In this document: positions 1 through 5,600 of the stretch, one piece after another | Position numbering within the stretch: position 1 is the stretch's first letter | Layout: every line of letters starts with the position of its first letter | Origin: Nitrospiraceae bacterium | GTDB lineage: Bacteria > Nitrospirota > Nitrospiria > Nitrospirales > Nitrospiraceae | Assembly (NCBI GenBank): GCA_050246315.1 | Contig: JBFWWG010000005.1 | Span: forward strand, 224,001-288,000 | Direction: 5' to 3' | DNA length: 64,000 nt | Position numbers and translations under genes: made by a program | The notes under the pieces: generated by a model | Seen by the model: only the letters and a program-made list of their open reading frames with translations | What the model was told of the DNA's origin: nothing | The model's database searches: none

Positions 1-393
1 AAGGACGGGAAGCGACGAACCTCCAAGCGAAAGTTCTTCCCCGGCTATGTCCTGATTGAACTTGAAACGCCGCTGACGGATGAAACCTTGCAGATGATCA
101 AGGAAACGCCGAAGGTCACGGGATTTGTGGGGGGTGGCGCGCAGCCGACGCCGCTATCCCAAGAGGAGGTCGAGTCGCTGCTGAAACAGATCGATTCCGG
201 CACGGCGCGGCCTCGGGAGCAGATCCGTTTTGTCAAAGGCGACAATGTGCGCATTATCGACGGCCCATTTTTGGGGTTCAACGGCGCCGTGGAAGATGTG
301 GATCCGGTGCACAACCGGGTCAAGCTGATGGTGAGTATTTTCGGGCGGTCCACCCCGGTGGAGCTAGGATTCTTGCAAGTGGAACGCATTTAG
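1..393 (+). CDS. nusG: Transcription antitermination factor NusG (5'-truncated by window)
   Basis: Frame 1 is open from base 1: ...KFFPGYVLIE...TPKVTGFVG...KOW GDNVRIIDGPF...VSIFGRSTPVEL. Confidence 0.97.
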   Translation, partial: KDGKRRTSKRKFFPGYVLIELETPLTDETLQMIKETPKVTGFVGGGAQPTPLSQEEVESLLKQIDSGTARPREQIRFVKGDNVRIIDGPFLGFNGAVEDVDPVHNRVKLMVSIFGRSTPVELGFLQVERI

Positions 394-399
394 TCATGG

Positions 400-470
400 T
401 GAATTAGGAATTGTGCATTCTGATTGAGGATCCGTCATTCAGAGTTGAGCATTCCTAATTCAGAATTCTG
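400..470. repeat. 12-bp inverted repeat plus degenerate heptamer tandem repeats in nusG-rplK spacer
   Basis: TGAATTAGGAAT (400-411) / ATTCCTAATTCA (451-462); units cattcag-agttgag-cattcct-aattcag-aattctg (436-470). Confidence 0.6.
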
Positions 471-484
471 AACGGAGTGAAGGT

Positions 485-907
485 ATGGCGAAGGAAGTTT
501 CGGCGCAAATCAAACTGCAGATCCCTGCCGGCAAGGCGAATCCTGCACCACCGGTGGGGCCTTCTTTGGGTCAGCACGGCGTGAACATCATGGAGTTCTG
601 TAAGCAATTCAACGCCCGGACACAAAAGGATGGAGACAGCATCATCCCGGTCATCATTACCGTCTACAAGGATCGCAGTTTTACATTCATCTGCAAGACG
701 CCACCGGCGTCGGACCTGTTAAAGAAGGCAGCCGGCATCATCAAGGGCTCCGGTGTGCCCCAGAAAGACAAGGTGGGCAAGATCACGCAGGCCCAACTTC
801 AGGAAATCGCCAAGAAGAAGATGGCCGATTTGAATGCGGCCGATGTCGATGGTGCCATGAACATTATCGCGGGAACGGCCCGCAGCATGGGCATCGTCAT
901 CCAGTAA
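485..907 (+). CDS. rplK: 50S ribosomal protein L11
   Basis: [38 protein letters not shown]. Confidence 0.99.
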
Positions 908-941
908 AGCATGGCATAACGATTCGCGCGAGGAGTTGGTC

Positions 942-1634
942 ATGGGAAAGAAAATGCAGGCGGCCCTGAAAAAAGTGGAGGCTCGTGCCTATCCGCTGAA
1001 GGATGCCGTCGAACTTATCAAGCAAGCGGCCTACGCCAAATTTGATGAAACGGTCGATCTGGCCCTTCGGCTTGGCGTGGACCCCAAGCGATCCGATCAG
1101 ATGGTCCGGGGCACGACCCTGTTGCCGCACGGATCGGGCAAGCAGATCCGCATCCTGGTTTTTGCGAAGGGCGAGAAGGAGCAGGAGGCTAGGCAGGCCG
1201 GGGCCGATCACGTCGGGGCCGACGATCTCATGGAGAAAGTGAAGGGCGGGTGGATGGATTTCGATTGCGCGATTGCGACGCCGGATCTTATGGGCGCAGT
1301 CGGCAAGTTGGGCAAGGTGCTCGGTCCGCGAGGCCTCATGCCCAATCCGAAGACGGGGACGGTGACGTTTGAAGTCGCGAAGGCGATCGGCGAAATTCGA
1401 AGGGGGCGGGTCGAGTACAAGCTCGATAAGGCCGGCATCGTGCACGTGCCGGTGGGCAAGGTCTCCTTCGAGGCCTCGCGGCTGTTCGAAAACGCCCAGG
1501 CGGTGCTGGAATCGGTCGTCAAGGCCAAGCCTGCGTCGTGTAAGGGACGCTATCTCAGGACCGCCACGATTTCGAGCACGATGGGCCCTGGGATCAGGCT
1601 GGATGCGGTCGCACTGGCGAAACAATGGGCGTAA
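942..1634 (+). CDS. rplA: 50S ribosomal protein L1
   Basis: [40 protein letters not shown] upstream of ATG 942. Confidence 0.98.
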
Positions 1635-1667
1635 GCGCGTCGTGACGCTAAACGGAAGAGGACGATC

Positions 1668-2600
1668 ATGAAACGGGAAGAGAAGGCGGTCGCGGTTGCC
1701 GAACTGAATGAGAAATTCAAGCGGGCTCGGCTGGCGATCCTGACGGAATGCACCGGAATGCCGGTGGCGCACCTGACGGAGCTGCGCAAGCAGCTCCGTG
1801 GAGTGAAGGCGGAATACAAGGTCGTGAAGAACACCCTGGCCGCACGGGCCTCGGAGGGCACGGAGATCGCGCCGCTCGGGGCGTATTTCAGGGGGCCCGC
1901 CGCGGTGGTCTTGGGGTACGACGACCCGGTCAGTCCAGCCAAGGTGCTCAGGGAATTTGTCGTAGCGGAAAAGCGCGATGAGAAACTGAAGATTCTGCTC
2001 GGGGTGTTGGAAGGTAAGTTGCTTCAGGCAGCTCAGATCCATGACGTGGCCAAACTGCCGAAGAAGGACGTGCTGCTGGCGATGTTGCTCTCTACGATGC
2101 AGGGACCGGCCCGGAATTTGGTCTCTGTACTGAGCGGTGTGGTGCGGAAATTCGTCTATGTGTTGAGCGCGATTCAGGATACCAAGAAAGGGGAGGGAAC
2201 GATGCCTACTGCGGAAGGGAAGCTGTCTCAGGAAGATTTCATCAAGGCGATCGAAGGCATGAGCGTGCTGGAGCTCGCCGAACTTGTCAAGGGGTTGGAG
2301 TCGCGCTTCGGCGTGACCGCGGCGGCGCCGGTGGCCGTGGTGGCGGCCGGAGGGGCGGGGGCTGCGGCGGCGCCGGCTGAAGAGAAGACCTCGTTTGATG
2401 TCGTGCTCGCCAGCGCAGCGGCGGATAAGAAGATCCAGGTCATCAAGGTCGTCCGAGAGCTCACGAGCCTGGGCTTGAAAGAAGCCAAGGATTTGGTCGA
2501 AGGGGCGCCGAAGCCCGTGAAGACCGGTGTGGCGAAGGAAGAAGCGGACAGCATGAAGAAGAAGCTGGAGGAGGCGGGTGCGAAAGTCGAGATCAAGTAA
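1668..2600 (+). CDS. rplJ: 50S ribosomal protein L10 read in frame into L7/L12 (310-aa L10-L12 fusion ORF)
   Basis: Residues 1-178 are L10 ([25 protein letters not shown]). No stop codon occurs before the L12 sequence. Confidence 0.92.
2202..2600 (+). CDS. rplL: 50S ribosomal protein L7/L12 (internal start in the fusion ORF)
   Basis: SD AAAGGGGAGGG (2187-2197) then ATG 2202; [11 protein letters not shown], Ala hinge, [32 protein letters not shown]. Confidence 0.93.
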
Positions 2601-2687
2601 TCACGCAAGCCTGAGAATCTGAGTCGTGCCTCGCGCGCGGCCGCGGGGCTGGGATGTGGTACGGATCGAGACAAAGGAGCGACACGC

Positions 2688-5600
2688 ATGCCGGATTCGA
2701 GTGGGGTTGAGTTGGTCCCTCGGAAGGATTTTTCCAGAATTCAGACGAGCATCGAGATTCCGGATCTGATCGAGATCCAGCGGCGTTCGTATGAGCAGTT
2801 CCTGCAGATGGAAAAAGAGCCCGAGCGTCGCGACGATCGGGGGTTGCAGGCCGCGTTGGCCAGCGTCTTTCCGATCGCCGACTACAACAATACCGCCGTG
2901 CTCGAATTCACGAGCTATGCGCTCGGGACGCCGAAGTACGACGTCCGCGAATGTCTCGAGCAGGGGATGACCTACGCAGTGCCCTTAAAACTGCGCGTGC
3001 GGCTGGTCGTGTTCGACAAGGAGGACAAGGGGCCGAAGCGCAAGGTGCTCGACGTGCGGGAGCAAGAGGTCTACGTCGGCGAGTTGCCCCTGATGACTGA
3101 GCGGGGCACCTTCATCATTAACGGGACCGAGCGCGTCGTCGTCAGCCAATTGCACCGGTCTCCCGGGGCCTCGTTCACGCACGACAAGGGACGGACGCAT
3201 GCCAGCGGGAAGGTGTTGTATTCCGCGCGCATCATTCCCTATCGCGGATCGTGGCTCGATTTTGAGTTCGACGCGCGGGACATTCTGTATGTCCGGATCG
3301 ATCGCCGGCGCAAGATGCCGGTCACGATCCTGCTCAAGGCCTTTGGGTTTTCCAGCGACGATCTCCTCAAGATGTACTATCCCGTCGAGGAGATCCATGT
3401 CTCACAGGGCAGGCTATACCGCAAGCTCGACCCGGAGATCCACCACGGCCTCAAATCGTCCACCGAGTTGACGGAGAAGGGCAGCAAGGAAGTGTTGGTG
3501 CGGGAGGGAGCCAAGCTCTCGAGGGTCATGATCAACAAGCTGAAGGCGGCGGGGATCAAGGAGATCCCGGTGGCTCCGGCCGAGTTGGTGGGGCGAGCCG
3601 TCTTGAGCGAGATCATCGATCCGCGAACAAAGGAGAAGGTGGCGGAGAAGAATCAACGCCTGACCGCGGAGATTCTTGAGAAGGTGGTGGAAAGCCAGGC
3701 CGAGGCCTTCAAGGTGATCTATCTCGACCAGGCGACCGCCACGCCGGTGATTTTGGATACGCTCGAAATGGAGCGGACGACCTCGAAGGAAGAGGCCATG
3801 GTCGAGATCTACAAGCGACTGAGGCCGGGCGAAACGCCGTCCATCGAGACAGCCAAGGCGCTGTTCGAAAACCTGTTTCAGAGCGCCAAGCGGTACGATC
3901 TGTCCCCGGTCGGGCGTCTCAAGCTGAACAAGAAGCTGGGGCTCGATCTGCCGCTCGAGCAACGCACGTTGACAAAGGAAGATATTGTCGAAGTCATCCG
4001 CTACTTGGTCAACCTCAAGATGGGCAAGGGGGAAGTGGACGACATCGACCATTTGGGGAACCGGCGGGTGCGGTCGGTCGGCGAGCTGCTCGAAAATCAA
4101 GTGCGGCTCGGCCTCGTGCGCATGGAGCGAAGCATCAAGGAGCGGATGAATTTGCTCGATATGGAAACGGTCCTGCCGCACGATCTGATCAACGCCAAGC
4201 CGGTGGTGGCGGCGATCAAGGAATTCTTTAGCAGCAGCCAGTTGTCTCAGTTCATGGATCAAACGAACCCGCTGGCGGAAATCACTCACAAGCGCCGTCT
4301 GTCCGCGCTGGGTCCTGGAGGGTTAACGCGGGAGCGCGCCGGGTTTGAAGTGCGCGACGTGCATCCTTCGCACTACAGCCGTATCTGCCCGATCGAGACG
4401 CCGGAAGGTCCGAACATCGGTCTGATCACCTCACTCGCCACCTATGCGAGAATCAACGAATTCGGCTTTATCGAAGCGCCCTATCGCAAGGTGTCCAAAG
4501 GGCGTGTCACAGAGGAAATCGAGTACCTCTCGGCGATCGAAGGAGACCGGTACGTGGTCGCGCAGGCCAATTCCACGGTCGATCCGCACGGGAAATTGGT
4601 GTCGGAGTCGATCACCGCCCGCTCCGCCGGCGATTTTGTCATGACCGGGCCGGACCGCGTGGAATATATGGACGTGTCGCCCAAGCAAGTGGTGAGCGTG
4701 GCGACGGCTATGGTGCCGTTTCTCGAGCATGACGACGCGAACCGCGCCTTGATGGGCTCCAACATGCAACGGCAGGCCGTGCCGCTGCTCAAGACCGAAA
4801 GTCCTCTGGTGGGGACCGGGATGGAAGCCGTGGTCGCGCGCGATTCCGGTTATGTGGTCCTGGCCAAACGCGCCGGTGTGGTCGAGAGTGTGGATGCGAC
4901 GAGAATCGTCGTGCGCGCCGATGCCGGGAAGGAGATCCGCAAGAAGGGGGACACCGGGTTGGACGTGTACGATCTCGTGAAGTTCCAGCGCTCGAATCAG
5001 AATACCTGCATCAATCAAATGCCGGTGGTCCGGTTGGGCCAACCGGTTAAGCAGGGGCAGGTTTTGGCTGACGGACCTGCGATCGATCGTGGCGAGTTGG
5101 CGCTTGGAAAGAATGTGTTGGTCGCCTTCATGCCTTGGGGTGGGTACAACTTCGAGGACGCGATTCTGCTCAGCGAGCGGGTGGTTCGGGAGGACGTGTT
5201 CACGTCCATTCATATTGAAGAGTTCGAAGTCGAGGCGCGGGACACCAAGTTGGGCAAGGAAGAAATCACCCGGGACATTCCGAACGTGGGCGAAGAAGCG
5301 CTCCGGAACCTGGACGAGAGCGGGATCATCCGCATCGGTGCCGAGGTTAAACCCGGGGACATCCTGGTCGGCAAGGTCACGCCGAAAGGCGAAACGCAAC
5401 TGACTCCGGAAGAGAAGCTGCTGCGGGCGATCTTCGGTGAGAAGGCCGGGGACGTGAAGGACACGTCGCTGACGGTGCCGCCCGGCGTGGAAGGTATCGT
5501 GGTCGACGTGAAGATCTTCTCGCGCAAGGGGCTCGACAAGGACGAACGGTCGCGCAGTATCGAAAGCGAAGACGCAATGAAGCTGCAGCGCGACCACCAG

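Follow-up and report, generated by a model that had tools for sequence, protein, structure and literature searches.

In the window, by which we mean the whole stretch of 64,000 nucleotides analysed here, the genes of the ribosomal stalk proteins uL10 (rplJ) and bL12 (rplL) are joined into one open reading frame, and the same joined frame recurs in genomes throughout the Nitrospira order. Judged from these sequences, each uL10 of the order is probably made as a covalent uL10-bL12 chain, with free bL12 arising from initiation inside the frame, and the fusion is likely to be ancient and fixed.

The fused rplJ-rplL frame

The frame (1668..2600, forward strand, as are all features given below) runs from ATG 1668 to TAA 2598-2600 over 310 uninterrupted codons. 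Codons 1-178 encode a complete uL10 and codons 179-310 a complete bL12, the latter opening at ATG 2202-2204, and between them lies neither a stop nor a spacer. Both parts are recognised as full equivalogs by NCBIfam, the L10 model NF000955 matching residues 4-173 with 169.7 bits (cut-off 85) and the L7/L12 model TIGR00855 matching residues 185-310 with 154.4 bits (cut-off 84.4). Pfam assigns residues 1-97 to PF00466 (Ribosomal_L10; E 1.3e-28, 99.4 bits, cut-off 22.8), residues 188-234 to PF16320 (Ribosomal_L12_N; E 1.6e-19) and residues 243-310 to PF00542 (Ribosomal_L12; E 6e-29), and the C-terminal part matches solved bL12 chains such as 1dd3_A (E 7.6e-37). The fused frame is the sole uL10/bL12 match in its own genome, an assembly of 30 contigs rated 100% complete. 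It lies in the usual nusG-rplK-rplA-rplJ-rplL-rpoB-rpoC cluster, at a distance of 33 nt from rplA.

An AlphaFold2 model of the fusion, built on a 49-row alignment, is of moderate quality (mean pLDDT 70, pTM 0.46) and silent on docking. It places the globular, rRNA-binding domain of uL10 in residues 1-129 (1668..2054; pLDDT about 85-90), which also carry the PF00466 match and most of the NF000955 match, followed by one long helix, alpha8, in residues 133-175 (2064..2192). A low-confidence coil at residues 175-186 (pLDDT <50, no secondary structure) marks the junction, and we take residues 176-187 (2193..2228), which are predicted to be disordered and are encoded by weakly folded RNA, as the tether between the two proteins. 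The bL12 part shows the three elements expected of this protein in Pfam, in TIGR00855 and in the model, namely the N-terminal dimerisation and uL10-binding domain (residues 188-214, 2229..2309, with helices at 188-196 and 200-214), a disordered, flexible hinge rich in Ala, Gly and Pro (residues 215-242, 2310..2393; pLDDT <50 at 218-245, no secondary structure) and the C-terminal factor-binding domain (residues 243-310, 2394..2597; residues 243-309 in the model).

With the canonical bacterial rplJ-rplL operon the fusion shares the protein families, the gene order, the operon context and an own Shine-Dalgarno (SD) site and ATG for bL12. In the canonical operon, however, a stop ends rplJ ahead of the rplL start and a spacer follows, whereas the frame of the window has neither of the two and carries the SD inside coding sequence. 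No L10 leader and no other Rfam family was found at E<=1 in positions 1-3200 of the window or at 14 loci, fused and unfused. Since stop and spacer are both missing, any uL10 made from this frame has to carry a bL12 in covalent linkage.

The sequence at the junction was compared with contigs of four runs from four studies, none of which contains an indel. Runs X2 and X10 contributed DNA contigs that span positions 1400-2800 with 0 differences, though both runs possibly represent the source sample of this DNA and are hence not fully independent. Two contigs from RNA libraries, which show only that the junction is present in such libraries, also span it, one (X14) over 1980-2448 with 0 differences and the other (X17) over 1885-2567 with five substitutions, 0 of them within 2170-2210. 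A sequencing or assembly error, or a pseudogene, by which a stop or spacer would have been lost in this assembly alone, is contradicted by these contigs, by the stop-free frame in 179 genomes, of which many are assembled as a single contig, and by the fact that the fused frame is the single copy of two essential genes, leaving such an artefact with next to no probability. The sequence-only reading of the window, which had described a single frame lacking stop and spacer, had seen in the missing spacer an argument against a single-base error and had named the reads at 2170-2210 as a check, was borne out: the frame of 310 codons holds complete L10 and L12 equivalogs, and the contigs of two DNA and two RNA-library runs show neither stop nor indel at these positions.

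Distribution and origin of the fusion

Whole-genome searches with the 310-residue protein yielded, among the matches listed, a full-length and stop-free match for 179 genomes, which belong to four families of the order, here termed f1-f4. This number is the union of 55 genomes from a first search, 26 new ones from a sampling of the phylum and the 150 rows of a class-wide search, from which one of the 26 (G232) is absent; all of the 150 rows listed for the order are full length and stop-free. The first search matched residues 1-309/310 without an internal stop in 55 of 61 relatives (counting G000), 32 of them in f1 and 23 in f2-f4. The six exceptions comprise two genomes with no match, two with the gene split at contig ends, one with a partial match at a contig end and contig C362 of genome G003, and they are uninformative for the fusion. 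In G033, whose gene is split over contig ends, both pieces run through the junction without a stop. The contig C362, which carries a TGA stop and was considered as an exception within the genus, measures 4.5 kb and reveals only 36% (uL10) and 61% (bL12) identity to the window, or 49% over the whole match, and it is probably a foreign contig.

Five genomes of f1, with completeness values of 95-99%, showed no match to the fused protein and no PF00542; rplA was also not found in the three of them that were searched for it. The region thus seems to lie outside their searchable sequence, and these genomes neither support nor contradict the fusion. One genome flagged as unpublished (G009, locus L007) is included in the 179 genomes and in the 42 aligned frames mentioned below, but nothing rests on it.

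In a maximum-likelihood tree of L10+L12 with 57 rows, the 42 fused frames extracted from f1-f4 form one clade with a support of 97/93. As the genomes counted are related, their numbers are not to be read as independent cases; a single origin of the fusion within the order is probable. Outside the order the picture is different. The sampling of the phylum included 160 genomes outside the order, 133 of which were matched, with joined matches containing one to four stops and L10 and L12 otherwise separate, and for the phylum outside the class 0 of 133 matched genomes were stop-free. Within the same class, 71 genomes outside the order were sampled from 15 families; two separate matches were found in 59 of the 68 matched genomes, and stops occur in eight of the nine joined ones. 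The frame thus stays open throughout the order, while relatives outside it, apart from the one described next, have a stop and a spacer. The comparison of rplJ-rplL junctions across Nitrospirota, which the sequence-only reading had named as a check, supports its view.

The ninth joined match, from a genome of family f39 (G285), is stop-free. Its junction reads ...NKSNAQEGKEEAM|GKLSQEE..., with AGGAGGGGAAGGAAGAGG ahead of the ATG, and in the tree it falls outside the f1-f4 clade on a long branch adjoining an unfused sequence. In the unfused relatives, uL10 ends at about the same place as in the fused protein, with a stop after it and then a spacer of about 50-110 nt in which the SD of rplL lies. 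At an unfused locus of family f6 (L045) this spacer contains CAAGAAAGGAGAAG, with the motifs of the fused junction. The simplest history suggested by these sequences would be a loss of the stop and of most of the spacer, with the SD region left behind and translated as a linker. An N-terminal extension of bL12 specific to the fused clade was also considered and rejected, as most outgroups start four to six residues later and the unfused f6 protein is two residues longer.

For occurrences elsewhere, a profile-free search of 1.84 billion representatives was evaluated for its best 150 matches, which include 22 long proteins (about 297-332 residues) with a single continuous match over residues 1-310 at 35-65% identity. 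The junctions of many of these long proteins resemble translated SD sites (...GGxxM...); some are without Met, and a Val at such junctions may represent a GTG start. Ten of the long proteins were looked up, of which six are single-member and four belong to clusters from several independent sources: P0125 (three members, one labelled Armatimonadota), P0127 (four members, labelled Dehalococcoidia and Chloroflexota), P0128 (16 members) and P0131 (12 contigs). Three further long hits (P0162, P0197 and P0207) look like frame errors. A scan of species genomes with P0127, whose own source lineage was not recovered, gave 80 loci spread over many other phyla, and 0 of the 73 evaluable ones were fused. 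L10-L12 fusion hence seems, from these sequences, to recur sporadically, and within this analysis fixation over a deep clade is seen for the Nitrospira order only.

The putative internal start of bL12

Ahead of the internal ATG at codon 179 (2202..2204), the putative start of free bL12, the frame carries the SD site AAAGGGGAGGG (2187..2197), coded as Lys-Gly-Glu-Gly, whose core GGAGG ends 5 nt ahead of ATG 2202. All 42 extracted fused frames encode the aligned Met by ATG, and 39 of them display AAGGAG or GGAGG at 4-20 nt ahead of it. The spelling of the site is AAG/CGG AAA GGR GAR GG (K/R-K-G-E-G) in f1 and f2, CCG AAG GAG GA (P-K-E-E) in f3 and AAG AAA GGA ATG GGA GAG (K-K-G-M-G-E) in f4. Since the families keep the SD motif while the peptide changes, the constraint lies on the nucleotides and not on the peptide.

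Codon choice points in the same direction. In an alignment of the 34 frames of f1 and f2 there are 91 columns with an invariant, degenerate residue, and Lys174, which is AAA in 34 of 34, is the sole one without any synonymous change; the other listed invariant Lys columns favour AAG (26-32 of 34). The neighbouring Gly175 is GGA or GGG in all 34 frames, compared with a GGR:GGY ratio of 481:491 elsewhere. The 16S rRNA of the genome ends ...GGATCACCTCCTTTCT, and its tail ...CACCTCCTTTCT is complementary to AGAAAGGAGG; the AAA at Lys174 is accounted for by AGAAAGGAGG being an extended perfect complement of this tail.

In duplex with the genome's own anti-SD, the internal site is the strongest binding site of the whole frame (-13.3 kcal/mol). 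The SD-like site of rplJ itself, GGAAGAGGA (1654..1662, 5 nt ahead of ATG 1668), reaches -8.2 kcal/mol against the 3' tail of the own 16S rRNA, and the neighbouring starts of rplK, rpoB and rpoC reach -8.6, -8.4 and -10.9 kcal/mol, respectively. Across the order the median energies, computed for the 42 frames with the anti-SD of this genome throughout, are -13.4 kcal/mol for the internal site and -9.5 kcal/mol for the rplJ site. The internal SD is the stronger one in 38 of 41 usable frames and rplJ is as strong or stronger in the remaining 3/41; one of the 42 was unusable for the rplJ site as its upstream stretch reads N. A bL12 start that is stronger than the uL10 start is what a stoichiometry of 1:4-6 needs. 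The RNA around the internal ATG (-30 to +20, 50 nt) is also weakly folded, with a median of -3.5 kcal/mol versus a mean of -13.4 kcal/mol over the frame; this places it within the least-folded 10% of windows for 33 of the 42 frames and within the least-folded 12% for the frame studied here.

An SD and a start codon conserved inside the frame and constrained beyond what the protein needs are the features of a frame with two products, and the pattern of substitution argues that the internal SD and ATG are under selection as a start. The sequence-only reading had seen in the KGEG codons a strong SD at the same time, which the anti-SD energies and the nucleotide-level constraint have strengthened. 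Its wider claim of a fusion with a retained start for free L12 holds for the open frame and for the conserved SD and ATG; the two proteins themselves, their accumulation and stoichiometry and the docking in cis are what we infer from these features.

Proposed products of the frame and the stalk

Ribosomes starting at ATG 1668 would meet their first stop at 2598 and release a 310-residue uL10-bL12 chain, in which the docking helix alpha8, a tether of about 12 residues and a complete bL12 follow each other. Ribosomes recruited by the SD coded as Lys-Gly-Glu-Gly would start at ATG 2202 and supply free bL12 of 132 residues in excess. The resulting stalk would consist of one covalent uL10-bL12 and about five free bL12, and the most likely partner of the tethered N-terminal domain would be a free bL12, the pair being seated at the distal alpha8 site of the same chain; in principle, the 12-residue tether is long enough for folding back to this site.

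Thermotoga maritima L10 binds three L12 dimers. The alpha8 of the fusion aligns without gaps to the L10 of this species in its complex with the L12 N-terminal domain (PDB 1ZAV), with residues 2-173 of the query corresponding to residues 4-178 of the 180-residue chain, and alignments to L10 of E. coli and B. subtilis end at residue 158. The long C-terminal helix is thus found both in the model and in the alignment to 1ZAV, its role in docking bL12 dimers is predicted, and from its length, which is of the three-dimer type, three docking sites and six positions for N-terminal domains may be deduced. This agrees with passages of two papers, which describe stalks of one L10 and four or six L12 and L12 dimers that occupy adjacent sites of about 10 residues from the L10 C-terminus (PMC1635324, PMC3299993). 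A complex prediction of fusion residues 148-245 with three free bL12 N-terminal parts reached a score of 0.13 and a mark of 0.34, the partner fold being uncertain, and it carries no weight for or against docking in cis.

A canonical, non-covalent uL10(bL12)n stalk would be obtained if the chain was cut at the junction after translation, so that the fusion affected only expression or assembly. The modelled junction, a disordered and exposed segment of about 12 residues, would suit a protease, and processed ribosomal proteins exist elsewhere, as the ubiquitin-fused ribosomal proteins of eukaryotes and the cleavage of bL27 by Prp in Bacillota demonstrate. However, the junction motif is not kept across the families (KKGEGxM, KPKEESM, QKKGMGEM), what conservation it has can be put down to the nucleotides of the SD, a search for a motif or protease brought no candidate enzyme to light, and a single substitution to a stop would have the same outcome yet is absent from 179 genomes, so that we regard cleavage as rather unlikely. 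Free uL10 could also be released by recoding, i.e., by a programmed frameshift or non-standard termination at the purine-rich junction, in which case little or no fusion would be made. Strong internal SD sites can stimulate frameshifting, with prfB and dnaX as examples, but the junction has no conserved slippery heptamer of the X XXY YYZ type, and the stops in the other frames are not conserved: in the +1 frame they are scattered 0.3-20 codons downstream of the ATG, and in the -1 frame their position varies between 9 codons before it and 129 after it, if they are present at all. On these sequences free uL10 by frameshifting is unlikely, and recoding that replaces the fusion altogether is scarcely credible.

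If a covalent chain is made, the fusion may still be a neutral accident that became fixed a single time, at the root of the order, with both products made and nothing conferred by the tether. The distribution fits a single origin, the N-terminal domain of bL12 binds alpha8 anyway, so that a tether might be harmless, and the scattered occurrence of fused forms outside the order hints at an easy change. The frame has, on the other hand, had ample occasion to close. Of the eight codons ahead of the ATG, a median of five (range 3-7) are one substitution away from a stop; an AAA to TAA change at Lys174, for instance, would leave TAAGGAG, a textbook SD, and hence keep the SD intact. Synonymous sites have been heavily turned over, conserved residues being encoded by a different codon in 44-72% of cases between genera and families and in 23% within the genus. 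Although three to seven single-base changes per genome would restore a stop, none is found at the junction in 179 genomes, and an absence of reversion despite such turnover is to be expected if purifying selection keeps the frame open. To us the open junction looks selected, and a neutral accident appears quite unlikely. That the tether is functional and selected, providing each stalk with one obligate, non-exchangeable arm beside about five free ones, as a bacterial counterpart of P0 that arose repeatedly (in f39 and in the clusters labelled Armatimonadota and Chloroflexota), is possible, and we put it forward tentatively.

Relation to known systems

The L7/L12 stalk draws translation factors to the ribosome and enhances their GTPase activity, and the arrangement of bacteria, with four to eight exchangeable copies on a separate base, versus that of archaea and eukaryotes, with a base that has its own tail, is a long-standing question. 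Archaeal and eukaryotic uL10 (P0) binds P1/P2 dimers and, in addition, has a factor-binding tail of its own at the C-terminus. The proposed stalk would resemble it insofar as the base itself bears one factor-recruiting element on a flexible linker and docks free dimers. It differs in that the fusion adds an entire bL12 with N-terminal domain, hinge and globular C-terminal domain, whereas P0 has a short acidic tail, and there is no homology between the two. The archaeal PRK04019 models scored 41.8, 29.3 and 28.5 bits, where their cut-offs are 381, 331 and 341, and covered residues 2-99 only, so the protein shows neither a match to an archaeal model at its cut-off nor a short acidic tail and is not an uL10 of the P0 type. 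From the convergence on P0 proposed by the sequence-only reading, an analogy of architecture is retained, but the added piece is a whole bL12 and the scores for archaeal L10/P0 fall far below the cut-offs.

Two proteins from one frame by means of an in-frame internal start are known from the IF2 forms of E. coli infB, the long and short forms of cheA, and clpB. As in the frame described here, these have an internal SD and start within one ORF, and long and short products share the C-terminal part. In comparison, the short product of the fusion would be a complete and universally separate protein, and its long product would join two subunits of one complex, unlike in infB, cheA and clpB.

If the proposed reading is true, a whole order of nitrifiers with environmental importance synthesises uL10 solely in covalent linkage to bL12. 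It would offer a natural experiment on the copy number and exchangeability of the stalk arms, on the order of stalk assembly, and on how a 1:5 stoichiometry is drawn from one ORF via two start sites of unequal strength.

Among the main texts of openly accessible papers, none on a natural L10-L12 fusion, its distribution, its internal start or its consequences was found, and the passages retrieved from PMC3578206 were irrelevant to such a fusion. By name, it is on public record as [quoted passage not shown] (P0117, P0033, P0020), for Nitrospira moscoviensis, N. japonica and a Nitrospira sp. MAG, with full-length proteins of 72-73% identity to that of the window; those who annotated them had thus noticed the fusion, and it seems to be recorded but unstudied. 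Other pipelines name the same ORF L7/L12, L10 or hypothetical protein, and naming of this inconsistent kind can interfere with the marker-gene sets used for Nitrospirota and with their ribosomal-protein phylogenies.

Upstream region and junction codons of the fused gene

In the window, the stop codon of rplA and the ATG of rplJ are separated by only 33 nt (1635-1667), and neither an L10 leader nor any other Rfam family was detected within positions 1-3200 or in 14 related loci. The rplA ORF itself has two candidate starts, namely the listed TTG at 936 and an ATG at 942-944, its protein beginning with MVMGKK... (936-945). The 16S rRNA of the same genome, located on contig G000:C14, has the 3' end ...CACCTCCTTTCT, so that the extended anti-SD pairs with AGAAAGGAGG, which in turn accounts for the AAG-AAA lysine codons lying 5' of the GGAG core at the uL10/bL12 junction.

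Family f1 genomes without a match, and a contig with separate rplJ and rplL

Within family f1 of the window's order, neither the fused protein nor Pfam PF00542 was matched in any of five genomes (G319, G377, G379, G385, and G405), and rplA, sought in three of them, gave no match either (0/3). Their completeness amounts to 95-99%, one of the five being a single 4.2-Mb contig; the entire rplKAJL region appears to be out of reach of the search in these genomes. A 4.5-kb contig of a same-genus MAG (G003:C362, locus L049) carries rplJ and rplL as separate genes with a TGA stop. Their products show identities of only 36% and 61%, respectively, to those of the window, and the contig probably has a foreign origin and entered this MAG through binning.

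Fused proteins of other lineages

Another stop-free rplJ-rplL ORF was found in family f39, in a genome from another order of the same class (G285:C122; L135, 717-1709, + strand). Its junction, …NKSNAQEGKEEAM|GKLSQEE, is unlike that of families f1-f4, reveals AGGAGG-type SD words 5' of an ATG, and the ORF forms a long branch outside the f1-f4 clade in the L10+L12 tree. The fused L10-L12 representatives P0130, P0131, and P0132 from other lineages have junctions without methionine, such as ...GEVSLSREQ... and ...GGSVQAII...; a valine codon at these junctions may serve as a GTG start of free bL12.

In five further library proteins of 593-1056 aa (P0123, P0135, P0149, P0151, and P0153), the bL12 C-terminal domain was matched in six to eight separate stretches, and these proteins look like tandem arrays of this domain, each within one polypeptide.
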